Below, in pieces: positions 3,899 through 24,637 of a DNA stretch of 32,000 bases (position 1 is its first letter; every line of letters begins with the position of its first letter). The notes beneath the pieces were generated by a model, which saw only the letters and a list, made by a program, of their open reading frames with translations, was not told where the DNA came from and did not search any database. Made by a program: the position numbers and the translations under genes. Origin of the DNA: Bordetella parapertussis (GTDB taxonomy: Bacteria; Pseudomonadota; Gammaproteobacteria; Burkholderiales; Burkholderiaceae_C); NCBI GenBank assembly GCA_945901125.1, contig CAMDKD010000001.1:70894-102893 (forward strand), given 5' to 3'.

Positions 3899-4403
3899 TC
3901 TGACATGCGGGTTTAGCTTTGTGCAATCAGTTCACGCCATGCCGGCTCGGTCGTTGTCACGTTTCGAAAAGTAATGTGTTCACGCCATGCGGGTTTAGCT
4001 TTATGTAGTGTATTCACGCCATGCCGGTTCGGTTTTAAGCGAGGTGTTCACGCCATGCCGGCTCGGTCGCCGCTCACTGCCGCTGCGCGCCAATGTTCGC
4101 GTCGGCCCGCCCGCCATGTCGTCGTCCGTTCGCAGTTTTCTCCGATTGCATATCTTCGGTTTGATGAACCATTAATCTTTGTCAACGAAACAGCGCTCGT
4201 ACCTAAAACATCACATAGGCCGACAGAGGGGGCGTTTTTTTCGAGCGAAAGCGCAGAAAAAAATCGCACCGGATGGTTGGCCAAAGCGTGTGTTTAATTC
4301 GAGTGAAGTGTTCACGCCATGCCGGTTCGGTCGCCGCTCACTGCCGCTGCGCGCCAATGTTCGCGTCGGCCCGCCCGCCATGTCGTCGTCCGTTCGCAGT
4401 TTT
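3899..4403. repeat. Array of intergenic repeats: five copies of a TTCACGCCATGC(C/G)GG head motif, two GCGGGTTTAGCTTT units and two near-identical 95-bp copies
   Basis: The head motif starts at 3931, 3979, 4013, 4047 and 4311. ATGCGGGTTTAGCTTT occurs at about 3905 and about 3987. The long copy A (4045-4139) and copy B (4309-4403) differ at one position that I can see (CCGGCTCGG versus CCGGTTCGG). Both end in a T-run. Confidence 0.85.
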
Positions 4404-11940: not shown

Positions 11941-13932
11941 ATGGCATTGGCTGAACCTTCCTCATTGATCAAAACCACTGGCACCTTGGAAGCCGACACA
12001 GCGGGCAAAACGCTGGTAGCAGGTGCGCTGTCCGTCGAATTTGACAACGGCAATTTGCGCTACATACGCCTCAAAGGTGTCGAGGTATTGCGTGCCCTCT
12101 CCTTTCTGGTGCGGGATGAAAATTGGGGCACTTACACGCCTGTGTTGCGTAATCTTTCTGTCAAGCAGCAGCCCAGTAGCTTTGTCATCAGTTACCAGGC
12201 CAGTTGCACACGCCAAGATCAATCGATTGACTACGAAGCGCATATCGAAGGCCATGCAGATGGCTCATTGATTTTTCGCGGCAAGGCCATACCGAAAACT
12301 GATTTTCTGACTGCGCGCACCGGTTTCGTTGTATTGCATCCGCTCACAGGCGTGGTCGGCCAGGCGCTCAAGGTTGAGCACGTAGACGGCACGGTGACAG
12401 AAAGTCAATTTCCTGAACAGGTCAATCCCGACTGCCCGTTCCGCAATATCAGAGCGCTGTCACACCAAGTGTTGCCCGGTGTATGGGCGCGTTGCGTCAT
12501 GCAAGGCGATGCGTTTGAAATGGAAGACCACCGCAACTGGACCGACGCGTCTTTCAAAACCTATGTGCGCCCGCTCTCGCGCCCCTGGCCTTACACCTTG
12601 CCTGCCGGTGAGGCGATTGAGCAATCGGTCAGCCTGCATTTTTCAGGACCGGTTCCCGGGCATGCTTCTTCAGCCAAAGCCGCGCCTTTGAAAGTTCGAA
12701 TAGGTTCGGTTTCTGACACCGTGATTCCATCCATAGGTCTGGGCGTTCCCGCTGAGGAAGCGGGCAACGCACTGTCTAAATTGTCATTGATGAAAAATCT
12801 GGCGCCCCAATTTCTGGTGTGCTTCTTCGATCCTCGCCAACACCACGGCGAGGCCTTGCTGCGTCAATACGCACAACTCAGCCGCGAGTTGCGTGCACAA
12901 GTGATGCTAGAAGTGGTGGTGCAAAGTCTGGACGGTTTTGCAGCCGAACTCTTGCAGGTAGCTGCTCATGCGCAGGCGGCTGGTTTGCAACCGGATATGG
13001 TGTGCGTATGTCCTGTGGGGCATTTAAAGTCTGTGCTGCCTGGCGGCATTTACCCGCCAGCACCTGAGTTGCATTCGCTTTATCTGGCGGCGCGCCAAGC
13101 TTTTCCGAAGGCACGACTTGGCGGTGGCATGTTTTCGTTTTTCACTGAGCTCAATCGCAAACGCCCGCCTTGCGAAGCCTTGGATTTCATCACCAATTCC
13201 ACCAGCCCCATCGTGCACGCTGCCGATGACCGCTCGGTCATGGAAACGCTGGAAGCCTTGCCTTGGCAGATTGAAACCGGCCAACATTTCTCCGGCGGCA
13301 AACCGCACCACGTGGGACCCAGCGGCATAGGCGCGCGCGACAACCCGCATGGTGCGCGTTACTCGGACAACACTAACAACAGTCGAGTTTGTCTCGCCAA
13401 AATGGACCCACGTCAGCGCGGTTTGTTTTCAGCTGCATGGACACTGGGCTATGTCAGCACGCTGGTTCATGCCGGGGTGGCGCGCATCAGCATGGCCGCA
13501 CCTACAGGTCCGCTGGGTGTGATGTATTCCCGCCAAGCAGATCAAGCTCAGCCGTGGTTTGATGGTCTGCCAAACCCAATGGCAGCGCACACGGTGTTTC
13601 CGGTGTTTCATACCTTGAGCTCTTTGAATTGCGCTTCAGGACACAAACTGCTGAATATCAGCAACAGCGATTCGCAACGGCTCGCCAGCCTGGGTTGGCA
13701 AGACGCCCAAGGCAAACGCATTTTGTTTGCCAACTTGAGCGCTCAAGCCTTGAAGATAGACCTGAGCGGCCTGAGCAAAAAAGCCTGCGCAGGCGTATTG
13801 GATGAACAGAGTTTTGTGCAAGCCTGTACGGATTCACACGCATTCCGTCTGGCCAGCCATTGGCTTGACAGCAAAAAAGGCTTGACCCTGGGCGCGTACG
13901 CCGTGGCCTGTGTGTTTGATCCAAAAGGCTGA
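11941..13932 (+). CDS. conserved protein of unknown function; last gene of the ABC transporter operon
   Basis: 663-aa ORF starting 19 nt after the ATPase stop, with host-like codon usage. I recognise no diagnostic motif. Confidence 0.6.
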   Translation: MALAEPSSLIKTTGTLEADTAGKTLVAGALSVEFDNGNLRYIRLKGVEVLRALSFLVRDENWGTYTPVLRNLSVKQQPSSFVISYQASCTRQDQSIDYEAHIEGHADGSLIFRGKAIPKTDFLTARTGFVVLHPLTGVVGQALKVEHVDGTVTESQFPEQVNPDCPFRNIRALSHQVLPGVWARCVMQGDAFEMEDHRNWTDASFKTYVRPLSRPWPYTLPAGEAIEQSVSLHFSGPVPGHASSAKAAPLKVRIGSVSDTVIPSIGLGVPAEEAGNALSKLSLMKNLAPQFLVCFFDPRQHHGEALLRQYAQLSRELRAQVMLEVVVQSLDGFAAELLQVAAHAQAAGLQPDMVCVCPVGHLKSVLPGGIYPPAPELHSLYLAARQAFPKARLGGGMFSFFTELNRKRPPCEALDFITNSTSPIVHAADDRSVMETLEALPWQIETGQHFSGGKPHHVGPSGIGARDNPHGARYSDNTNNSRVCLAKMDPRQRGLFSAAWTLGYVSTLVHAGVARISMAAPTGPLGVMYSRQADQAQPWFDGLPNPMAAHTVFPVFHTLSSLNCASGHKLLNISNSDSQRLASLGWQDAQGKRILFANLSAQALKIDLSGLSKKACAGVLDEQSFVQACTDSHAFRLASHWLDSKKGLTLGAYAVACVFDPKG

Positions 13933-14649: not shown

Positions 14650-14792
14650 TTTTTCTCGATCCATTGGTAAAAAGATATTTCTCAAATGTAACCAATTGAA
14701 AACACAGTCTTTTCATGATTCTTTAATAAGCAGTGGCAATCATCAATAATGATGCAATAATGCATCAATTTTTAAACTTAAAAGATCATTCC

Positions 14793-15002
14793 ATGCGAAC
14801 AACTGTGACCATTGATGACGAGCTTTATGCCCAGGCGCTGGAAGTAATTGATCCAGATATTGAAAAATCAGAACTTTTTCGCGAAGCACTGAAAGTATTT
14901 GTTCGCGTGGAATCAGCAAAGCGGCTAGCCGCCTTAGGCGGCATGGCACCGGCAATGAAATCCATACCCCGAAGACAAGCCAAACCAGCTTTGAATTCTT
15001 GA
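14793..15002 (+). CDS. vapB: type II antitoxin, VapB-like (ribbon-helix-helix/DUF2191-like)
   Basis: The internal ATG at 14793 gives MRTTVTIDDELYAQALEV, the usual antitoxin N-terminus. The stop lies 1 nt before the PIN toxin start. Confidence 0.7.
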   Translation: MRTTVTIDDELYAQALEVIDPDIEKSELFREALKVFVRVESAKRLAALGGMAPAMKSIPRRQAKPALNS

Positions 15003-15003
15003 C

Positions 15004-15381
15004 ATGGTGTTAGTGGACACCTCGGTCTGGGTACAACACTTCAGACAAAACAACCCCTATTTAGGCCATTTATTAAGCAATGACTTGGTACTGTGTCATC
15101 CCTTTGTTTTGTTGGAAATCGCTTGCGGCTCGCCGCCGTCGCCGCGACAACAAACTTTGGCATACCTCGGCAAATTACAAAAGATAAAAACAGCGACCAC
15201 GACAGAGGTTTTGAATTTCATTGAGTCGCAAGACCTGTACGAATCAGGTTGTGGGGCTGTAGATATCTCTCTGCTGGCATCTGTGCTTATCACGCCAAAT
15301 GCAAAACTGTGGACATTGGATAAAAAATTACATGCACTAGTCATCAAAACCAAAGTAGCGTTTGATACTTTGACGCAGTGA
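15004..15381 (+). CDS. vapC: PIN-domain ribonuclease toxin VapC
   Basis: 125 aa. The conserved acidic residues are D5 (MVLVDTSVW), E38 (LLEI), D87 (AVDISLL) and D106 (WTLDKK). Confidence 0.85.
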   Translation: MVLVDTSVWVQHFRQNNPYLGHLLSNDLVLCHPFVLLEIACGSPPSPRQQTLAYLGKLQKIKTATTTEVLNFIESQDLYESGCGAVDISLLASVLITPNAKLWTLDKKLHALVIKTKVAFDTLTQ

Positions 15382-15400: not shown

Positions 15401-15412
15401 TTATTCCCACTC
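15401..15412. repeat. distal att copy: displaced remnant of the guaA 3' end (E-W-E-stop)
   Basis: TTATTCCCACTC here matches CTACTCCCACTC at 22985-22996 at 10 of 12 positions, with an 8-bp identical core TCCCACTC. It sits 19 nt after the vapC stop, exactly at the composition boundary. Confidence 0.6.
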
Positions 15413-15633
15413 AGTAGTTACTTGAATAAAATAGTCAATAAAATCAATAGGTTGCGTAACTTAAAAAACAGCGTGTAAGTTTTGTGCTACTTTTTTCATT
15501 TTTAACCCTTTAGTTCAACTAACGTAACCTATTCTTAATCAACGCTTAAGTGCCGCTTAGGTTACACAGGCTGTTGTGGGAAAGTGCTACAACGAAAAAA
15601 CACAAGCGCTCTTAATTATTTGCCATCATACAC

Positions 15634-15662
15634 GTGACATAGCACGCCATACAGCTTAAAAT
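15634..15662 (+). promoter_or_regulatory. candidate sigma70 promoter for the acyltransferase operon
   Basis: GTGACA (15634-15639), a 17-nt spacer and TAAAAT (15657-15662), about 30 nt upstream of ATG 15694. AGGA lies about 10 nt before the start. Confidence 0.35.
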
Positions 15663-15693
15663 TATTTCTAAATTTTAACAGGATTTTTGCTAA

Positions 15694-17703
15694 ATGAAAT
15701 ATAGAAAAGAGATAGACGGACTGAGGGCGTTAGCTGTATTACCCGTCATCTTGTTCCACGCAGGCTTTACAACTTTCAGCGGTGGCTTTGTAGGCGTTGA
15801 TATCTTCTTCGTAATTAGTGGCTATCTAATCACCACAATCATCGTAGATGAGATGGATAAGGGTTCATTTTCACTTCTTAACTTTTACGAACGAAGAGCC
15901 CGAAGAATCTTACCAGCCTTATTTTTTGTAATCCTGTGTACGCTTCCATTCGCTTGGTTTTGGATGTTACCGCAAGACTTGAAAAGCTTTTCACAAAGTT
16001 TAGTAGCCGTTCCACTCTTTGCCTCAAACGTTCTTTTTTGGCTTACAAGCGGTTACTTTGATACTGCCTCTGAGCTTAAGCCTTTGCTTCATACTTGGAG
16101 CTTAGCTGTTGAGGAACAGTACTATGTCTTGTTCCCACTATTCTTAATGCTTGCTTGGAAATTAGGTAAAAAGTGGATTATTTCCTTACTAATAATAGTT
16201 GCTATTGTTAGCGTATCTGCCGCGCAATATGGCTCAACAAACCATCCATCATTCACCTTTTATCTGTTACCAACACGGGCTTTTGAGATACTTATTGGAG
16301 CCTTAATATCTTTGTATATTAATCACAAACAAAGTATAATTTCAGTCAGTCAGTCAGTCAGTCAGTCAGTCAGTCTGGCTGGTTTGGCACTTGTTCTTTA
16401 CGCAATATTCGCTTTTGATAAGAACACACCATCCCCAAGTTTATACACACTTATACCAACAGTCGGCGCTGGTTTAATTCTAGTATTTGCGAACAACAAA
16501 AACATAGTTGGCAAACTACTGGGAAGTAAAGTAGCTGTAGGAATTGGTTTAATAAGTTATAGCGCTTACTTATGGCATCAGCCATTGCTAGCCTTTGCTA
16601 GATTAAGAAGCATCAATGAACCAAGCCATTTATTGCTTGGACTATTAGCAATGCTATCAATTTTGATGGGTTACTTAAGTTGGAAATATATTGAAACTCC
16701 ATTTAGAAATAAAAATACAATCAGACGTAATTCAGTCTTTGTTTGTAGCGTTACAGGAAGTATTTTTTTTATAGCTATTGGGCTTTATGGACATCTTACA
16801 AAAGGGATTCCAAACAGATTGCCCGCAAGTTCAGCTTCCATTTTCTTTGCCGTTAATGATAAAAACCCAAGGCAAGCCGAATGTCATTTTGGAACAGAAA
16901 AATTTCCTAAACCTCAAGATTCGTGCGTATTAGGAAGCCTAGATAATATACAAGGTGCTCTGCTTGGAGATTCACACGCTGATGCTATTTCCTATGAGTT
17001 AGAGAAAAATCTTGAACTAAAAAATTTAGGATTTTTGAGCCTAACTTACTCTGGATGCCCACCCATACAAAATGTTTATCGAGTAGATGCTCCAATAACA
17101 AATAAATGTTATGAATATAACGAACAAACATTCAGATTTTTACTACAAAATCCAAAAATTCATTACGTAGTTCTATCAGCTAGATGGACTTTATACCTCG
17201 AAAAAAATAGGTACAACAATACTGAGGGAGGTATTGAGGATGGGGAAGATGCGTTTATTGATGTCGTTAGTAACGGCAACAGAAAAATTAATGATGAATT
17301 AACTAGAAAAGATTTAGTAAAGAAAAGTTACCGTACAACAATTGAAAATTTACTACAAGCTGGTAAAAAGGTAATCGTTGTCTACCCAATACCAGAAGTA
17401 GGATGGGATGTTCCAGTTAGACAATTAAAGAAAATATTATTTAACGAGTCAAATGTTGAACCTATAACAACATCCTATTCATCTTTCCAAGTTAGAAATG
17501 AGTCAACAATAAGGGCGCTTGATTCAATTCCCAGCAATGTAAATCTTATACGAATAAAGCCAGAAAAAATTCTTTGTAATAGCTTTATTAAAGATAGATG
17601 TATCACTCAAATTGACTCTAAAATTCTCTATTATGATGACGATCATTTGTCGAATGAAGGAGCTAAGCTGGTAATTAACGAGGTAATGAAGTTTGTAAAG
17701 TGA
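15694..17703 (+). CDS. OafA/YrhL-type acyltransferase-3 membrane domain fused to a C-terminal SGNH domain (surface-glycan O-acyl/acetyltransferase)
   Basis: 669 aa. The AT3 N-terminus is MKYRKEIDGLRALAVLPVILFHAG followed by FFVISGYLIT, with about 10 hydrophobic segments. SGNH block I is LLGDSHADAIS and block V is YYDDDHLSNEGA. Confidence 0.9.
   Translation: MKYRKEIDGLRALAVLPVILFHAGFTTFSGGFVGVDIFFVISGYLITTIIVDEMDKGSFSLLNFYERRARRILPALFFVILCTLPFAWFWMLPQDLKSFSQSLVAVPLFASNVLFWLTSGYFDTASELKPLLHTWSLAVEEQYYVLFPLFLMLAWKLGKKWIISLLIIVAIVSVSAAQYGSTNHPSFTFYLLPTRAFEILIGALISLYINHKQSIISVSQSVSQSVSLAGLALVLYAIFAFDKNTPSPSLYTLIPTVGAGLILVFANNKNIVGKLLGSKVAVGIGLISYSAYLWHQPLLAFARLRSINEPSHLLLGLLAMLSILMGYLSWKYIETPFRNKNTIRRNSVFVCSVTGSIFFIAIGLYGHLTKGIPNRLPASSASIFFAVNDKNPRQAECHFGTEKFPKPQDSCVLGSLDNIQGALLGDSHADAISYELEKNLELKNLGFLSLTYSGCPPIQNVYRVDAPITNKCYEYNEQTFRFLLQNPKIHYVVLSARWTLYLEKNRYNNTEGGIEDGEDAFIDVVSNGNRKINDELTRKDLVKKSYRTTIENLLQAGKKVIVVYPIPEVGWDVPVRQLKKILFNESNVEPITTSYSSFQVRNESTIRALDSIPSNVNLIRIKPEKILCNSFIKDRCITQIDSKILYYDDDHLSNEGAKLVINEVMKFVK
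16342..16375 (+). repeat. perfect tetranucleotide microsatellite (TCAG)8 plus TC inside the acyltransferase CDS
   Basis: Counted base by base: TCAG x8 spans 16342-16373 and TC follows. The tract begins on a codon boundary (16342 - 15694 = 648) and is read as SVSQSVSQSVSL. Confidence 0.95.
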
Positions 17704-17732: not shown

Positions 17733-17945
17733 ATGAATCGCATTGAACAGATTAAGTTAGAACAAAAGAAGTTGGCAGACGAACTTGAAAGCGAGATGCT
17801 AAAAGAACGTGCCAATGTACTTGCGAGGATGAAGGAAGACATTAAGTTGTTTGGCTTTAAGACTAGTGACTTTAAGGGTGTACTTGCTACACGCAAAAAA
17901 CGTGGCACAGCGGTTAAGAAAGTTGTAGCTAAAAGTAAACCTTAA
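17733..17945 (+). CDS. small coiled-coil protein resembling the N-terminal oligomerisation domain of betaproteobacterial H-NS, without the DNA-binding domain
   Basis: 70 aa with RBS AAGGAG 7 nt upstream. The heptad-like region is IEQIKLEQKKLADELESEMLKERANVLARMKEDIKLFGFKTSDF, which compares with the H-NS pattern ...yGLTxeDl. It ends in a basic tail RKKRGTAVKKVVAKSKP and has no TWxGRG-type motif. Confidence 0.45.
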   Translation: MNRIEQIKLEQKKLADELESEMLKERANVLARMKEDIKLFGFKTSDFKGVLATRKKRGTAVKKVVAKSKP

Positions 17946-17962
17946 ACGAAACAGGTACAACT

Positions 17963-18766
17963 ATGCCAGCTCCTAAAATTCCTCGTAAGCCCATTCCTAA
18001 GTTCACAAAAGCTGAACTTAATAGAGCCAATCTTTGTGCTGAAGCACTTTGGTATGGAGTGAATTTTAAGACTGGTGACTTGTACCCTATCAGTGACGCA
18101 AACTTAATGAGCAGATTTGCGTTTAACTTTTACCATTACCACAAGAATAAGAAGAAGTTCCAGCCCGATATTTTTGTGGCTGATGTTCGTGAATTAATCT
18201 TAGCTTGTGGCATTAAGATGCTATTTCGCGGTATAGCTGAAATGGACTTAAGAAAAGGAATTAACAGTCTGTATAAAGACGTTTATCCGCTCTTTCAAAA
18301 GTCACTTAAAAGTCCAAGTAGAGTTAGCTCACATCAAGTCGCGGTTAAGTGTTTAGAAAGCTTAAGCAAAGGGCTTGTTAAAAACCCAGCCGCAAATCGT
18401 CTTAATCTTGCGTCACGCATACTGTTCTTCTTATTGCCAAACATACAGGCGTTTAATATGAATAATAGTGTTGCTATATTTTTCGGTTTACAAACACGTC
18501 CTCATCATCATTACACTGAATACTTTGAGTTGTTTAGCAAGGGATTGGTTACTAACCAAACTAACTTAAGCAAGTACAAGATGCCACCAGCACGTGATGA
18601 TTTAGACGTAGTAACTTGGAATGAAGCAAGCAGAACTGATTGGTGGAAAAGACGTGTGCTGGACTTAGCTGTGCTACTACACACAAGTCCAAACATATCT
18701 GTGTACCCTAATCTACGCTATATGATTAAACAGCAGATTAAAGCTGACAAGCTAAGCCAACCTTAA
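17963..18766 (+). CDS. hypothetical protein, 267 aa, third gene of the acyltransferase operon
   Basis: The ORF starts 17 nt after the previous stop and has island-like AT-rich codon usage. It has no motif I can assign. It appears helical and contains NLASRILFFLLPNIQAFNMNN. Confidence 0.6.
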   Translation: MPAPKIPRKPIPKFTKAELNRANLCAEALWYGVNFKTGDLYPISDANLMSRFAFNFYHYHKNKKKFQPDIFVADVRELILACGIKMLFRGIAEMDLRKGINSLYKDVYPLFQKSLKSPSRVSSHQVAVKCLESLSKGLVKNPAANRLNLASRILFFLLPNIQAFNMNNSVAIFFGLQTRPHHHYTEYFELFSKGLVTNQTNLSKYKMPPARDDLDVVTWNEASRTDWWKRRVLDLAVLLHTSPNISVYPNLRYMIKQQIKADKLSQP

Positions 18767-19428
18767 ATTAGCTCAATCGCTTTCCGTTTCATAGCGTCGT
18801 TGACGTCTATATAGCATTGTGTTGTGCTGATGTTAGCGTGTCTAGCAATGCTTTGTAATACCCTAACTGACACGCCTTTGTCAGCTAAATTGGTAATCGC
18901 CGTACGACGCGGTGAATGTGAACTAGCACCATCAATCCCAACATTGCGGAATAAGTGATGGAAGAATTGGCATAGCGTGTTGCTATTCCAACCTTCAATT
19001 GGACGCTTTTGTGAATAAAACAGCTTGTCAGTAATTGATTTATACGGCACAGCTTTAACGTAAGCTTGTAGCTCTTTGCGTAGCTTATCGCTTACAAATA
19101 CTGTCCCAGTCTTGCTACCTTTAGTCTGTTCTGCGCTTAAGTAAATCTCAGCTTTAATCTTGCCCTCAGTGTCTAATACGTCCGCATAACGCAAGCTAGC
19201 ACATTCCTTAACCCTTAATGCGGCATACAGCATTGTTAAAAACATTGCCCTATTGCGTTCTGCGTGTGGACGTGTTGCCACGTAGTCCAATACCCTACGT
19301 GTTTCTGTGGCTGTTAGCGTTTTAGCTTGTTTAGACATTAGTGCTCTCCTTAATGTAAGCTTTTCAATGTCTAAAGTGTATTTTCTTTGTTTCTTAATTC
19401 CTACCGATTTTTTGTCAAGCTGTGTCAA
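18763..19428 (-). CDS. small tyrosine recombinase (catalytic domain with a short N-terminus)
   Basis: 221 aa. The catalytic signature residues, in order, are R (AALRVKE), HxxR (SSHSPRRTAIT), H (IARHANI) and Y (TTQCYIDV). Its stop overlaps the convergent 267-aa gene's stop by 2 nt; the two convergent ORFs overlap over 18763-18766 (CTTAAA). Confidence 0.85.
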   Translation of the reverse strand: MTQLDKKSVGIKKQRKYTLDIEKLTLRRALMSKQAKTLTATETRRVLDYVATRPHAERNRAMFLTMLYAALRVKECASLRYADVLDTEGKIKAEIYLSAEQTKGSKTGTVFVSDKLRKELQAYVKAVPYKSITDKLFYSQKRPIEGWNSNTLCQFFHHLFRNVGIDGASSHSPRRTAITNLADKGVSVRVLQSIARHANISTTQCYIDVNDAMKRKAIELI

Positions 19429-19471
19429 TTAGAAATCCTCAATGATTACGCCAACTTAGCGTATGAATAGC

Positions 19472-19505
19472 AAAAAACCAAAGCTTTTACTTATTAGCTT
19501 TGGTT
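19472..19505 (-). terminator. candidate Rho-independent terminator (minus strand) downstream of the rep-like gene
   Basis: AACCAAAGCT (19476-19485) pairs perfectly with AGCTTTGGTT (19496-19505) around a 10-nt loop. On the minus strand the stem is followed by TTTT. Confidence 0.5.
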
Positions 19506-19827
19506 CTGTATTTATTGGATTTTGAAGCTGATTGCGTGATTTTTAAGCAGACTTACGTATAAGCCCTACACGCTGTTTTAAGCTAGCCCAGCTACCCAAG
19601 CTTAGCTCAGCTTGCTTTAAGCGTTTGTAGCTTGTTTAATTCAGCCTACTGTAGCTTTGCTGTTGTAGACACGCTCAGTGTTAGCTTTACTCTGTTACTT
19701 TAAGTTTAAGTTTTGACTGTTTCAGTGTTAGCTTTAAGTGTTTACTAGAATTTAGACAAAGCTTCGCCAATTAAAGCTAACAAGCTTTATTAAAATCAGC
19801 AAGATCCAAACGTGGGCGTTAGTGCTG
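19506..19827. other. iteron-like, AT-rich noncoding region (candidate origin: dso or oriT)
   Basis: There is no ORF of 60 aa or more. TCAGTGTTAGCTTTA is repeated exactly at 19675-19689 and 19722-19736. CTTTAAG and TAGCTT/AGCTTAGCT motifs also recur. The region lies directly downstream of the HUH Rep-like gene. Confidence 0.4.
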
Positions 19828-20352
19828 TTAAGCTAAGTGCCAAAGCACGTTATCCGTGTCTTTAGTACCTAGTTCTTTTGTGATGTATTCCATCCAACCG
19901 CTATCTGTAATATCAACCTTATGCTCAGCGTCAATATGTTCAACGTGTAGTTTCGCGTTTGTAACAAGCGTATCAAATTGATTAAACTTAACGTGACTTG
20001 GTAAACCGCCAATAGCAAAGTGTAAGTGTAAGTTTTTGCTACTACGCTCACCCTCAACTACTGGTAGATACATAAGCGTGTATCCAAACTTGTCAGCGTT
20101 ACGCTTACCAAATACTTGTCTGTTTAGTTTTTGTGTAAAGCGTTTAGCAATACGCTCACAGTCAGTACGTGTCAGCTTACGCTTATACGTGCCTCTGTCA
20201 GTTGTTTCTACAATAGTCTGCTTGAGTGTTAATGTTAGAGCTAGCGGAAATTCCTTACTCATACCACTTAACCACGTGCGTGTTGCCGCCTTTTGCGTCG
20301 GCAAGGCGTTTGGGTTATAGGCTGTACGAATGCGTATTTCTTGTAGTTTCAT
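19828..20352 (-). CDS. HUH-superfamily rolling-circle Rep/relaxase-like protein
   Basis: Three RCR motifs occur in canonical order: motif I LALTLTLK, motif II (HUH) NLHLHFAIGG and motif III (YxxK) WMEYITKEL. The start is taken as ATG 20352 (MKLQEI); the track uses TTG 20367. Confidence 0.6.
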   Translation of the reverse strand: MKLQEIRIRTAYNPNALPTQKAATRTWLSGMSKEFPLALTLTLKQTIVETTDRGTYKRKLTRTDCERIAKRFTQKLNRQVFGKRNADKFGYTLMYLPVVEGERSSKNLHLHFAIGGLPSHVKFNQFDTLVTNAKLHVEHIDAEHKVDITDSGWMEYITKELGTKDTDNVLWHLA

Positions 20353-20372
20353 ACTAGTATTTAGCAAGAACC

Positions 20373-20396
20373 AAAGGAAACAAGATATTTTCCTTT
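20373..20396. promoter_or_regulatory. perfect 8-bp inverted repeat in the divergent rep / 145-aa-gene control region (candidate operator)
   Basis: AAAGGAAA (20373-20380), an 8-nt spacer and TTTCCTTT (20389-20396), located between the divergent starts at 20352/20367 and 20458. Confidence 0.3.
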
Positions 20397-20457
20397 AGGT
20401 TGTCCTTAACGTAATCTGAAACTACAGTACAAATTCCTTAACTAAACGGAGATTTGT

Positions 20458-20895
20458 ATGTCAGTTATTGCCAAACTAAAGCTTATTGCTAGCAAACGCG
20501 AGCATAACCATAACCCTATTATTGTTCGTCGCAATAAACTTGCTTTGAAACTAGATGAACAACTAGCACTTTGTACAGCACAAAAAGAAGGACGTTTGTA
20601 CGCACCTAAGCGTATTAAGACTGTGACTAACGCTGATGGTGAACGTGTAAGTGTTGAAACTACCAAGCGTGTTAAAGAATGGTTTTGGACTACGAGCACA
20701 GGCAAGATTAACTTGGCTGTGCGCTATGGTAGCAAAGTGCTGGAGCTTAGCAAGGGTAAGAATGCGATTGAATTGAGTACGGGTGAAGAGCTTATCGCCA
20801 CTTTGAGTTTGCTTAAAGATGCTGTTATTGCTGGCGAACTGGATGACGCTATTACTAACGCAAGCGATAAGTTACGTTCTGGCTTTTCTAAATGA
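20458..20895 (+). CDS. hypothetical protein, 145 aa (resembles proteins seen next to integrases in genomic islands; family not named)
   Basis: The ORF has an upstream GGAG, is divergent from rep, and shows charged helical composition (KRVKEWFWTTSTGKINLAVRYGSKVLELSKGKNAIEL). Confidence 0.55.
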   Translation: MSVIAKLKLIASKREHNHNPIIVRRNKLALKLDEQLALCTAQKEGRLYAPKRIKTVTNADGERVSVETTKRVKEWFWTTSTGKINLAVRYGSKVLELSKGKNAIELSTGEELIATLSLLKDAVIAGELDDAITNASDKLRSGFSK

Positions 20896-20901
20896 TTGAT
20901 T

Positions 20902-20929
20902 AAGGACTGGCTACCAATAGTCAGTCCTT
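20902..20929 (+). terminator. weak hairpin after the 145-aa gene
   Basis: AAGGACTG and CAGTCCTT form a perfect 8-bp stem around a 12-nt loop, followed by GTCTTCTATTCTC. The U-tract is poor. Confidence 0.3.
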
Positions 20930-20968
20930 GTCTTCTATTCTCGCTAAATATAAGAATAGGAGACAATT

Positions 20969-21490
20969 ATGCGGATTAGTGAGATAACAGACGCACAAGG
21001 GCAGTTGGAGTTACTACGCACAGTAATTGACAACACTTGGACAGCAATAGCACAGCAGGCGGAACAAGAGAAACGTGCTGAGGCTGAACGTAAGGAAAAA
21101 GCTAAGCTTAAGCCACGTAGTCATAAGCCTATATCCATTCCTAAAGCACCTTCACCACCCCCACTTAAAAAGCCTAAGCCACCCCTAAGTAAACAACCAA
21201 CCCCCACACCTAATGTACCCAACCCTAACAAAGCAAATACCATAACTCCTGTACGTAGCACAACAAAACCTATACCCAATTTTCAACCCCAAGCTAACCC
21301 CCAACTTAAGCCCTTACCTAATAACGCACCTACGTCAGTACAAAACACGCCTAATCCGCCAAAAGATGGGTATTTAGACAAGAATATAGGCGTAATTAAA
21401 AAAGACGAACGTGGGGATGAAAGGCATAGTAAAAATGGTATACGCACTCTTAAAAAATTACCGCGCAATTTTCAGTACCCAAGTACTTAA
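20969..21490 (+). CDS. proline-rich low-complexity protein, 173 aa
   Basis: RBS AGGAG lies 6 nt upstream. The N-terminal helical/coiled segment (QQAEQEKRAEAERKEKAK) is followed by about 90 aa of P/K/N/T-rich sequence (KAPSPPPLKKPKPPLSKQPTPTPNVPNPN). Confidence 0.5.
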   Translation: MRISEITDAQGQLELLRTVIDNTWTAIAQQAEQEKRAEAERKEKAKLKPRSHKPISIPKAPSPPPLKKPKPPLSKQPTPTPNVPNPNKANTITPVRSTTKPIPNFQPQANPQLKPLPNNAPTSVQNTPNPPKDGYLDKNIGVIKKDERGDERHSKNGIRTLKKLPRNFQYPST

Positions 21491-21534: not shown

Positions 21535-22824
21535 TTACTTAGGAATCAGTAAGCCATCTTTGTAATAGTACTGTGGCATAGCGTTTTCTATCATCTTGCG
21601 TTCTGTCGTATGGTAATAAGTCTTCTCAATTTGAGCCGTACTTGTTCCACAAGTTTCAGCTACTTGAGTTGGTGAAGCGCCCTTATTAATCATATCGGTA
21701 ATGAAGTAGTGGCGGAAACTATACGGCACTAAATCTCTCACTTCTCTATTCTCAATTTCACAGCGTGTGAGTATCTCGTCAAAGTGGTAAAGGATTACAC
21801 GTGGAGTTAAAGCACTTAAGCCGTCCGTACTAAACGCTAATGTTTTGGCAAATGGCGTTGCTTTCTTGTTGTCTTTATGCGCCTTAGCGTATCTCGTATG
21901 TAGGAATGTGTATAAGTCACTAAAGTATTCCCAATCCTTTATTACAAAGCTCCTCGTCTTCCTAACCTTAGTTGTCTTGCCTCTTACCGTTATCTTTACT
22001 AAGCTGTAAGGATTTCCGTCTTCTTCCCCTTTAACGTGCTTTTCCATCCAGCTAATGTCAGCCCAAGTTAGCTGTAATTGCTCCCCTCTACGTAAGCCAG
22101 TAATGATTGCTATAAGCAAATAATAGGCTGTAATGACTTTATTAAGATTGCCATACAAGCTTAAGTCTTGCTTGGCTTCTTTAATATAGCTTTCAAGCTC
22201 AGTCTTAATGGCAACTATTTCTTCGTCTGTAAATGTGTTGCGCCTGTTCTTTTCATCACCTGTATCTACTTTAGGTAGCTTCTTAAAGTCAAATGCTTCA
22301 ATATAAGTTTCGCCACGCTTATGTAGCCAACTCATCATTGCGTTAATCGTACTTTGTTCGTTAAGTATGGTTGTACGACTGACTGGTAATTTCTTTTTAT
22401 TCTTCGTACGTTCGTGAAAATAGTTCTCACAGTCTGTACGTTCCATCTCCTTAAGCTTGGTGTCTTTGCCAATAAACTTAAGCCAATGCTCTAAGTGTGT
22501 TTTGATAGTGCTAAGCCTACCTTTAACGATTAACTCTGCTTCAGCATCTTTAGCTCTTTGCTTAACGTACTCCTCTACACCTTGCTTAGATGTCATTGAA
22601 AAGTACGTCTTGCCTGCTAATTGCTGTGCCATTAGCTCGTGATAGTACTTCTTAGCCTTTGCCTCTGCTGTATCTCTATTTCTTGTTCGTAGACTGAAAC
22701 GTGCGTACTTCTTTTCCTTAGCCAACCACATACGCATCTGCCAATACTCACCTCGTGTGTAGATTAAGGCTTCTTCGTAAATGGCTATTTCATTGGGCTT
22801 TAATGATGGTTTTTTTAGTGGCAT
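21535..22824 (-). CDS. int: tyrosine integrase (phage-integrase family) of the island
   Basis: 429 aa. The catalytic residues are R in GLRRGEQLQLTWADI, box II in PYSFRHYFITDMINKG, and Tyr in IEKTYYH. The gene is 160 nt from the guaA stop and runs in the same direction as guaA. Confidence 0.9.
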   Translation of the reverse strand: MPLKKPSLKPNEIAIYEEALIYTRGEYWQMRMWLAKEKKYARFSLRTRNRDTAEAKAKKYYHELMAQQLAGKTYFSMTSKQGVEEYVKQRAKDAEAELIVKGRLSTIKTHLEHWLKFIGKDTKLKEMERTDCENYFHERTKNKKKLPVSRTTILNEQSTINAMMSWLHKRGETYIEAFDFKKLPKVDTGDEKNRRNTFTDEEIVAIKTELESYIKEAKQDLSLYGNLNKVITAYYLLIAIITGLRRGEQLQLTWADISWMEKHVKGEEDGNPYSLVKITVRGKTTKVRKTRSFVIKDWEYFSDLYTFLHTRYAKAHKDNKKATPFAKTLAFSTDGLSALTPRVILYHFDEILTRCEIENREVRDLVPYSFRHYFITDMINKGASPTQVAETCGTSTAQIEKTYYHTTERKMIENAMPQYYYKDGLLIPK

Positions 22825-22984
22825 ATGGGATTAAAGTTACCTACGAAATTGAATAGCTACAGTTTTGTGTAGCTTTACGTGTAACTTTAATTCCACTGCC
22901 TAATAAAATCAAGCACTTGTTTGACTTGTGAAAGTTTTGTGTAACTACAAAACCTATATAAATCAAGTACTTATATAAAGAAAA

Positions 22985-22996
22985 CTACTCCCACTC
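22985..22996. repeat. proximal att copy, forming the present guaA stop and last three codons
   Basis: CTACTCCCACTC is the complement of GAG TGG GAG TAG. It pairs with 15401-15412. Confidence 0.6.
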
Positions 22997-24637
22997 TATC
23001 GTCGCCGGCGGTTTGCTGCTCACATCCATCACCACCCTGTTGATACCGCGCACTTCGTTGATGATGCGCCCCGATACTTTTTTGAGCAAACCATAGGGCA
23101 ATTCAGCCCAATCTGCCGTCATAAAGTCGCTGGTGATGACTGCGCGCAAGGCCACCACGTAATCGTAGGTGCGGCCATCGCCCATGACACCGACAGACTT
23201 CACCGGCAGAAAAACAGCGAACGCCTGGCTGGTGGCTTCGTACCAATTGCGTGGCGCTTGCGTGCCGCCGAATGCCACGGCTGACACATCGCCAGTGAAC
23301 GGCGTGTTTCGCAGTTCTTCTATGAAGATGGCATCTGCTCTGCGCAGCAAATCTGCATATTCAGATTTCACTTCGCCGAGTATGCGAACGCCCAAACCAG
23401 GCCCGGGAAACGGATGGCGGTACACCATGTCGTAAGGCAGTCCCAGTGCCACGCCGAGTTCGCGCACTTCGTCTTTGAACAAATCGCGCAGCGGCTCTAA
23501 CAATTTCAAACCGAGTTGCTCAGGCAAACCACCGACGTTGTGGTGGCTTTTGATGGTGACAGCTTTTTTGCTTTTCGCGCCGCCGCTCTCAATCACGTCA
23601 GGGTAAATCGTGCCTTGCGCCAAGTAGGTGGCGCCCTTGTGTCCGCCGTCCCCTGCTTTGAGTTTGGCCGCTTGCTCTTTGAACACAGTAACAAATTCAG
23701 CGCCAATGATTTTGCGTTTGGCCTCGGGGTCGCTGACACCTGCGAGCTTGCCTAAAAACAATTCGCTGGCATCCACACGTATGACGCGCGCATGCAGTTG
23801 GCCTGCAAACATTTGCATGACCGCATCGCCTTCGTTCAGTCGCAATAAACCGTGATCGACAAACACGCAGGTCAGTTGATCGCCGATGGCGCGGTGTATC
23901 AAGGCCGCAGCCACCGATGAATCCACGCCGCCGGACAAGCCCAGAATCACTTCTTCATCGCCGACTTGTTGACGGATACGCGCCACGGCTTCATCCACAT
24001 AACCGGTCATCACCCAATCGGCCTTGGTGTGGCAAATATCCAGCACAAAGCGATGCAGCATGGCTTTGCCTTGCACCGTGTGTGTCACTTCAGGGTGAAA
24101 TTGAACACCGTAAAAATGCCGCGCCTCGTCGGCGATCCCAGCGATTGGACAACTGTCGGTGCTGGCCATCAGTTTGAAGCCGGGCGGCAACTCTGTCACT
24201 TTGTCGCCGTGGCTCATCCACACTTTCAGCATGCCGTGGCCTTCAGGCGTGGTGAAGTCTGCAATGTCTTTGAGCAAAGCTGTGTGGCCGCGCGCGCGCA
24301 CTTCGGCGTAGCCGAATTCACGCTGATGCCCGCTTTCCACTTTGCCGCCGAGTTGCTGCGCCATGGTTTGCATACCGTAGCAAATGCCAAGCACCGGAAT
24401 GCCCAACTCGAACACCAATGACGGCGCGCTGTCTGTGTCGTCTTCATAAACGCTTGCGTGGCTGCCGGACAAAATAATGCCTTTGAGCATGCCGTCAGCA
24501 GCGTAGTCACGCAGCCATTCGTTGGTCACATCGCAGGGATGGACTTCGCAATACACATGCGCTTCGCGCACTCGCCGCGCGATCAGTTGCGTGACTTGCG
24601 AGCCGAAATCAAGAATCAGGATTTTGTGGTGTGCCAT
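22985..24637 (-). CDS. guaA: GMP synthase (glutamine-hydrolysing)
   Basis: 550 aa. It has [22 protein letters not shown], the GATase Cys in GICYGMQ, the ATP-PPase P-loop LSGGVDSSV, and the C-terminus KPPATIEWE. Confidence 0.97.

Follow-up and report, generated by a model that had tools for sequence, protein, structure and literature searches.

The 32-kb stretch of contig CAMDKD010000001.1 that was analysed here in full (hereafter, the window) carries a gene encoding a two-domain acyltransferase, in which an AT3 membrane domain is fused to an SGNH domain, and this gene contains a perfect (TCAG)8 tetranucleotide tract in the middle of its coding sequence. The tract is very probably a contingency locus, i.e., a site of localised hypermutation at which slipped-strand mispairing switches the acyltransferase ON and OFF. 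The observations behind this assignment are the tract itself, the logic of its reading frames, a natural length polymorphism among related loci, near-identical contigs that differ in their number of units, and intact open reading frames (ORFs) behind OFF tracts. A slipped-strand switch had been put forward in the original prediction, which was made from the window alone, and is supported by the natural occurrence of both ON and OFF alleles. The gene and the two stop codons used by its shifted frames are the following, n being the number of repeat units:

15694 to 17703, forward strand: ORF of the AT3 plus SGNH acyltransferase, 669 amino acids, ON at n = 8, assigned through Pfam and conserved motifs.
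16416 to 16418, forward strand: TGA stop codon, used when n = 0 mod 3 (e.g., 9 units, 242 amino acids).
16475 to 16477, forward strand: TAA stop codon, used when n = 1 mod 3 (e.g., 7 units, 259 amino acids).

Tandem Repeats Finder returned the array at 16342-16375 (forward strand) as (TCAG)8 followed by TC, with a period of 4, 8.5 copies, 100% matches, and TCAG as the consensus unit, and this was the sole short-unit array (period of 6 or less) of such quality in the 32 kb. Similarly, the 20-mer (TCAG)5, with up to two mismatches allowed, was confined within the window to 16342-16375, and the same pattern was matched in none of 100 dinucleotide-preserving shuffles of the window. The earlier claim that nothing comparable occurs elsewhere in the 32 kb thus stands for short-unit arrays, but not for longer units, as a tandem repeat with a 34-nt period at 3975-4067 (2.7 copies, 81% matches) obtained the top Tandem Repeats Finder score in the window, exceeding that of the TCAG tract. 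This longer array overlaps the start of the ORF at 3974-4297.

The tract opens on a codon boundary, at codon 217 of the acyltransferase ORF, since 16342 - 15694 = 648 = 3 x 216, and its translation is SVSQSVSQSVSL (residues 217-228). It is hence a perfect repeat inside an ORF with a unit length that is not divisible by three, as is typical of a simple sequence repeat (SSR) that shifts the reading frame. Because the unit is 4 nt long, the SVSQ repeat is read in all three frames of the tract, without stop codons. Changing the number of units in the window sequence in silico left the frame open at n = 5 (665 amino acids), n = 8 (669 amino acids), and n = 11 (673 amino acids). Proteins of 238 and 242 amino acids, both ending at the TGA stop codon, were obtained at n = 6 and n = 9, respectively, and proteins of 259 and 263 amino acids, both ending at the TAA stop codon, at n = 7 and n = 10. 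Repeat finding, ORF frame, and shuffles thus confirmed the perfect in-frame tract, and the open frame of 669 amino acids confirmed that the gene is ON at eight units.

Related loci were found by scans of GTDB genomes and JGI metagenomes, complemented with look-ups of database proteins. A tetranucleotide tract at the identical position was present in 16 loci, the window included, with ...AGTATAATT(TCAG)nTCTGGCTGG... as the tract and its flanks. Perfect (TCAG)n tracts occurred with n = 5, 6, 8, 9, 11, 13, 14, 21, and 28. The alleles were as follows:

L013: 5 units, ON.
Window: 8 units, ON.
L014: 8 units, ON.
L017: 8 units, the first being TTAG, ON.
L018: 11 units, ON.
L016: 14 units, ON.
L030: 6 units, OFF.
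L024: 9 units, OFF.
L019: 13 units, OFF.
L026: 21 units (84 nt), OFF.
L020: 28 units (112 nt), OFF.
L029: 8 units, interrupted (TCAG TTAG TCAG ACAG (TCAG)4), ON.
L005: 8 imperfect YCAG units, ON.
L015 and L023: 7 degenerate units, OFF.
L007: (CCAG)4, OFF.

Every open gene among these 16 loci had n = 2 mod 3, and all other lengths led to a stop codon 3-15 codons past the tract. Changes restricted to steps of 12 nt, which had been named beforehand as a pattern that would speak against switching, were not found; lengths of 5-28 units were seen, about half of them out of frame. Moreover, the repeat number varied between flanks that were constant. Indeed, L018 and L019, which come from two samples, differed over 2188 nt by two mismatches and a single 8-nt gap, corresponding to 11 (ON) versus 13 (OFF) units. 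Similarly, L014 and L026 differed over 2349 nt by 19 mismatches and a single 52-nt gap, corresponding to 8 versus 21 units. In addition, one protein lineage with an identical N-terminus comprised alleles with n = 4 (P0388, OFF), n = 5 (P0002 and P0365, ON), n = 7 (P0391, OFF), and n = 8 (P0366, P0367, and P0369, ON). The interrupted ON allele of L029 was 99.4% identical to the window.

The genes behind OFF tracts were mostly intact. With one unit more or less, ORFs of 648-668 amino acids were restored in silico in L019, L024, and L015, and an ORF of 528 amino acids, up to the contig edge, in L026, so that these OFF alleles are free of other lesions. The exception among the OFF alleles was L007, in which a further in-frame stop codon (L007 1753-1755, inside the SGNH part) was present besides the frameshift at the tract. 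This (CCAG)4 homologue, which stems from a metagenome-assembled genome (MAG) of Red Butte Creek, looks like a decaying copy. The out-of-frame tails predicted from the window were retrieved in natural OFF alleles, namely the tail SGWF...RNI of the n = 0 mod 3 frame in L024, L026, L030, and P0124-P0126, and the tail SVWL... of the n = 1 mod 3 frame in L019, L020, P0128, P0391, and P0393. Many database clusters consist of N-terminal fragments of 224-246 amino acids that end in one of these tails (...SGWF...RNI.. or ...SVWL), and separate C-terminal fragments of 387-433 amino acids exist among the database proteins as well. The gene of L030 (NCBI Burkholderiales MAG GCA_028121745.1) is annotated as two genes, one for an AT3 protein (238 amino acids) and one for an SGNH protein (332 amino acids). 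The clusters P0002, P0011, P0052, and P0131 mix such split fragments (AT3-only fragments of about 225-246 amino acids, and C-terminal SGNH fragments of 303-433 amino acids that begin at internal codons) with full-length proteins.

When ON, the acyltransferase looks functional, as judged from its domains, critical motifs, and structural model. Pfam matches to PF01757 (Acyl_transf_3; residues 5-322, E = 1.4e-32) and PF19040 (AT3-fused SGNH domain; residues 396-664, E = 7.7e-51) uphold the assignment to the AT3-SGNH family. The motifs of AT3 proteins have been defined from residues that are critical by mutagenesis in OafA and OafB of Salmonella, and comprise R/K-X10-H in transmembrane helix (TMH) 1, GG-F/Y-XGV-D/P/V at TMH2, FFXISG, RXXR, a serine in the loop between TMH3 and TMH4, and a glutamate after TMH10 (PMC7448272). 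The acyltransferase contained R11-X10-H22, GGFVGVD (residues 30-36), FFVISG (residues 38-43), RRARR (residues 67-71, with R68 and R71), S111, G202, and E334. All residues critical in OafA and OafB were present and were invariant in an alignment of 30 homologues, as was the SGNH triad, consisting of S427 (in LGDSHA), D648, and H651 (both in DDDHLS). An AlphaFold2 model of the protein had a mean predicted local distance difference test (pLDDT) score of 84.9, and Foldseek returned the periplasmic domain of OafB (6SE1; E = 2.6e-6, TM score of 0.63 normalised to the target) as its best fold match in the PDB. A phmmer search of the acyltransferase against the PDB sequences gave no match, the link to OafB thus coming from the fold search alone.

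In the AlphaFold2 model, the residues encoded by the tract are located between the helices 192-212 and 220-240, and residues 211-220 have a pLDDT score of 64. If G202 of the window protein corresponds to G202 of OafA, which is part of TMH6, the tract would encode the loop between TMH6 and TMH7, a loop that would be cytoplasmic according to the alternating topology of OafA. A frameshift in this loop would therefore strip the protein of TMH7-11 and the entire SGNH domain. The truncation point lies after about six of the 11 predicted transmembrane helices, the last five helices and all of the SGNH domain being removed. The truncation foreseen in the original prediction thus holds for the loss of the whole SGNH domain, but the loss of the AT3 domain was overstated.

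The repeat in all probability does not owe its presence to the peptide that it encodes. Outgroup homologues with 50-70% identity carry unrelated loop sequences of similar length, with merely a loose VSQ..SL consensus, and selection on the SVSQ peptide was rejected on the basis of these unrelated loops. The DNA of Acidovorax and Paracidovorax, the closest cultured homologues, displays just a CCAGCCAGCCA remnant at the tract site. In relatives with imperfect tracts, the peptide differs, for instance SASQSVSQLVSL in L005 and SASQPVSQ... in the P0136 lineage, but the YCAG periodicity of 4 nt persists; L005, L007, and the P0136 lineage all retain it. The repeat is hence a feature of the DNA, and probably grew from a short proto-repeat. 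A conservation of SVSQ by non-repetitive codons, which had been named as a sign of selection on the protein, was looked for in the relatives and was not found, close relatives keeping the DNA repeat in its perfect form or as imperfect YCAG units. It is hardly credible that selection acts on the SVSQ repeat as a tunable cytoplasmic loop (5, 8, 11, or 14 units, in steps of four amino acids) that modulates activity or partner binding, with frameshifts as a side effect. In-frame alleles of four different lengths do exist, mid-gene tetranucleotide tracts have been said to be able to 'modulate the protein function' (PMC2651432), and the low pLDDT score around the tract fits a flexible linker. However, the DNA of these codons shows a perfect periodicity, the outgroup loops are unrelated in sequence while similar in length, and the frame is lost in about half of the alleles. 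A tunable loop can, moreover, go together with an ON/OFF switch, without replacing it.

Several observations weigh against a slipped-strand switch. All alleles are consensus sequences of metagenome contigs, and the tracts with n = 21 (84 nt, L026) and n = 28 (112 nt, L020) are at or beyond the limit of short-read assembly, being hard for k-mer assemblers. The unit counts of L026 and L020 may be wrong because of these long tracts, that of L020 lying 24 nt from the contig end. That all length differences are assembly or sequencing artefacts on a tract that is truly fixed is nevertheless highly unlikely. Indeed, tracts of 20-56 nt (n = 5-14), including those with the OFF lengths of 6, 9, and 13 units, fit well inside single short reads. 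The alleles originate from independent projects and assemblers (JGI, ENA, NCBI MAGs, and Logan), and errors would not give flanks that are identical over 2 kb together with a clean 8-nt gap.

Further points of this kind concern the state of the OFF alleles and the tract lengths. Some OFF alleles look decayed, such as L007 with its second in-frame stop codon, and the allele shared by L015 and L023, which with its seven degenerate units would revert poorly, recurs as split ORFs in at least eight contigs and may be a fixed pseudogene. Also, a tract of eight units would be among the shortest of those Haemophilus tracts for which high switching has been measured, and the ON to OFF ratio of about 1:1 (6:5 among perfect DNA tracts) is indistinguishable from a neutral length distribution. 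These features, together with a variable cargo of the island on which the gene resides (see below), would fit a neutral instability of the microsatellite in an accessory gene that is dispensable, OFF alleles then marking the onset of gene loss on an island in decay. Such neutral decay is improbable, as perfect tracts persist in lineages the flanks of which have diverged by 2-20%, four of the five testable OFF alleles carry no other lesion, and the critical residues of the enzyme are invariant across the 30 homologues. In addition, perfect ON alleles exist side by side with interrupted ones of the same length (L029 and P0379), as is the case for known contingency loci.

If the tract is a contingency locus, slipped-strand mispairing at replication would add or remove 4-nt TCAG units, and only lengths of n = 2 mod 3 (5, 8, 11, 14, and so on) would preserve the frame of the acyltransferase. 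The AT3 domain would carry an acyl group across the inner membrane and the periplasmic SGNH domain would place it on a surface carbohydrate, the substrate most likely being O-antigen, lipopolysaccharide, or another surface polysaccharide. At other lengths, translation would end 3-45 codons past the tract, after TMH6, whereby TMH7-11 and the catalytic SGNH domain would be lost and acetylation would stop. In-frame changes would only alter the number of SVSQ tetrapeptides in a short loop between two helices, which is evidently tolerated. The outcome would be a mixed population of acetylating and non-acetylating cells. Tetranucleotide SSRs of Haemophilus change at about 1e-4 per generation (PMC2651432) and, by analogy with such rates, switching within a clone may be high and reversible. 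The selective agents would most likely be phages or grazers that either use the acetylated glycan or avoid it. In L030, a Wzz gene (polysaccharide chain-length determinant, PF02706; L030 4697-5362, reverse strand) is located directly upstream of the OFF acyltransferase gene, which is the sole hint from gene context at an O-antigen-like polymer as the substrate.

The gene is also a mosaic of two parts, with the tract in between:

15402 to 16341, forward strand: conserved head, comprising the upstream region and codons 1-216 (TMH1-6, up to the helix with G202), 89-100% nucleotide identity.
16376 to 17703, forward strand: variable tail, comprising TMH7-11 and the SGNH domain, of at least eight types with less than 55% amino acid identity among loci that share the head.

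The nucleotide identity of the head, which amounts to the 5' 940 nt, was found in nearly all tract-bearing loci compared (L007 left out). The homology of the window to other loci begins abruptly at about 15402, and the DNA past the stop codon of the acyltransferase is conserved again (86-93%). Between L014 and L018, only two mismatches were counted over 900 nt on the 5' side of the tract, versus 130 over 400 nt on its 3' side, where the first one is at +19. This maps at least one putative recombination breakpoint within 20 nt of the tract. It is possible, though rather doubtful, that the tract doubles as a shared patch of homology, or as a fragile site, and thereby promotes an exchange of cassettes. 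As the tail includes the SGNH domain, held to set acceptor specificity, one locus would then provide free-living freshwater bacteria with both stochastic ON/OFF switching and a swappable specificity of surface-glycan acetylation.

A low-GC block, which starts with the acyltransferase gene as its first gene, extends from about 15402 to about 22995 and has a GC content of 0.34-0.42 versus 0.51-0.60 in the flanks. The guaA gene (22985-24637, reverse strand) adjoins this block through its 3' end, guaB being located beyond. The features of the block are the following:

15402 to 15412, strand not assigned: candidate attL at the left island end, TTCCCACTCAG, the core of which repeats the core of the guaA 3' end.
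15634 to 15662, forward strand: promoter-like site GTGACA-17-TAAAAT, about 30 nt 5' of the ATG start codon of the acyltransferase gene; a consensus match only, the regional count of such sites not being above that of shuffles.
17733 to 17945, forward strand: lysine-rich ORF of 70 amino acids, 30 nt past the acyltransferase stop codon.
17963 to 18766, forward strand: ORF of 267 amino acids, conserved in L016, L024, and L026 but missing from L029 and L005.
18763 to 19428, reverse strand: tyrosine recombinase of 221 amino acids, inside the island.
21535 to 22824, reverse strand: tyrosine integrase of 429 amino acids, at the guaA-proximal island end.
22982 to 22995, strand not assigned: candidate attR at the right island end, AAACTACTCCCACT, the reverse complement of the last guaA codons and stop codon.

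A CCCACT core was present at both ends of the block. L028 encodes an identical GuaA protein and carries other cargo at the site (an insertion sequence, an amidase gene, and a TctC gene), and L029 has a shorter island, without the region corresponding to 17855-21310. In both L015 (positions 150-340) and L023, a right-end/left-end junction was found, which suggests the existence of tandem or circular modules. With an integrase adjoining guaA, a duplicated 3' core, an atypical GC content, and a presence/absence polymorphism, the block is a predicted integrase-type island at the 3' end of guaA, which is a documented target of genomic islands (PMC9376610). The island context claimed originally is thus corroborated, also by the low GC and the two tyrosine recombinases. 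A prophage origin was considered as well and was dropped in favour of an integrase island; neither an exact DNA pattern scan nor a protein-based scan of the IMG/VR viral contigs yielded a relative. The uncultured host is probably a member of the Burkholderiales, in view of the label of the L030 MAG and of Acidovorax and Paracidovorax as the closest cultured homologues; a search with GuaA gave metagenome proteins with 96-100% identity and, at 90%, a single MAG labelled 'Methylotenera sp.', which is not decisive.

The DNA of the 70-amino acid ORF stays linked to the acyltransferase gene in most related loci, whatever the SGNH type. A promoter and terminator scan, which itself performed no better than on shuffles, gave no terminator-like site in the gap between both genes. 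The encoded protein has a coiled-coil-like N-terminus and a lysine-rich tail (...ATRKKRGTAVKKVVAKSKP) and by eye resembles a small H-NS-like or nucleoid-associated protein, for which no library match was obtained. For the island ORFs of 70, 267, 179, and 173 amino acids, PHROGs, PADLOC, Pfam, and NCBIfam returned no function.

Just outside the left island end, at 14733-15381 (forward strand), two small ORFs of 89 and 125 amino acids are present. The latter has a weak match with VapC toxins (E = 5.8e-6), below the curated cut-off, and both ORFs could constitute a toxin-antitoxin pair next to the island. Further upstream, an ABC transporter operon of the sugar type, with SBP_bac_1, two permeases, and a MalK-like ATPase, is followed by an ORF of 663 amino acids (11941-13932, forward strand), which had no Pfam match at E <= 0.001.

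The closest precedent of the switch described here is oafA of Haemophilus influenzae, an AT3 gene that is switched by a GCAA tetranucleotide tract in mid-gene (PMC10505976, PMC2651432), the length of which ranges from 5 to 14 units between strains (PMC2651432, table) and the expression state of which is selected by niche (PMC10505976, PMC2651432, PMC6479036). Both systems share an AT3 acyltransferase and a tetranucleotide tract of variable length inside the ORF, unusually in mid-gene and not at the 5' end. However, the repeat unit differs (TCAG versus GCAA), and the locus thus works like H. influenzae oafA, without being filed as its orthologue. Also, oafA is a conserved chromosomal gene of a host-restricted pathogen, whereas the gene described here is part of a guaA-integrated island of uncultured freshwater bacteria and has interchangeable 3' halves. 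The repeat unit itself has a counterpart in the AGTC tracts of H. influenzae, such as the 14-unit tract in a glycosyltransferase gene (PMC2651432). Indeed, AGTC is TCAG read in another register, the encoded peptide is likewise hydrophilic and uncharged, and the frameshift logic is the same, but those tracts are located just after the start codon of unrelated genes in a host-adapted species.

With OafA and OafB of Salmonella, the acyltransferase shares the two-domain architecture of 10+1 transmembrane helices and a periplasmic SGNH domain, all mutagenesis-critical residues, and the fold of 6SE1 as its best match, although the sequence similarity is too low for a phmmer match to PDB chains. Phase variation of Salmonella oafB is epigenetic, with signature sequences upstream of the gene (PMC9558356), and its mechanism is DNA methylation-dependent according to the title of the study of Broadbent et al. 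cited therein. Unlike the tract described here, oafB switching is hence not SSR-based. As to the island, a tyrosine integrase beside guaA, an end that repeats the guaA 3' core, a low GC content, and cargo that varies between near-identical strains are shared with GIsul2 and other guaA islands. Resistance cargo is absent from the island in the window, the likeness to GIsul2 being limited to the target site.

SSR contingency loci are a textbook trait of host-adapted pathogens with small genomes. SSR-bearing genes in environmental bacteria have already been predicted, mostly from single genomes, for instance for restriction-modification genes (PMC7383803). The ecological surprise that the original prediction attached to an SSR switch in an environmental bacterium is therefore smaller than implied. 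In the searchable literature, no description was found of this locus, nor of any acyltransferase switched by an SSR in freshwater Burkholderiales. As a mechanism, the switch belongs with the classic contingency loci. What is new is the setting, namely uncultured freshwater bacteria and an island at the guaA 3' end, together with the mosaic gene, the conserved 5' part of which ends at the tract. Moreover, the prediction is backed by population evidence from many independent freshwater metagenomes, with 4 to about 28 units and about half of the alleles OFF.

The locus also bears on genome annotation. In the output of gene callers, OFF alleles end up as separate 'AT3 only' and 'SGNH only' proteins, and phase-OFF alleles are therefore systematically mis-annotated in MAGs; as the split fragments are clustered with full-length proteins, such alleles are also hidden in protein catalogues. 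For the biology of these planktonic bacteria, the locus offers a testable case of bet-hedging on surface-glycan chemistry, in which phages and protist grazers, and not antibodies, would be the selective agents. If the tract indeed also promoted the exchange of tail cassettes, SSR contingency loci would be a common anti-phage and anti-grazer strategy beyond host-adapted pathogens.

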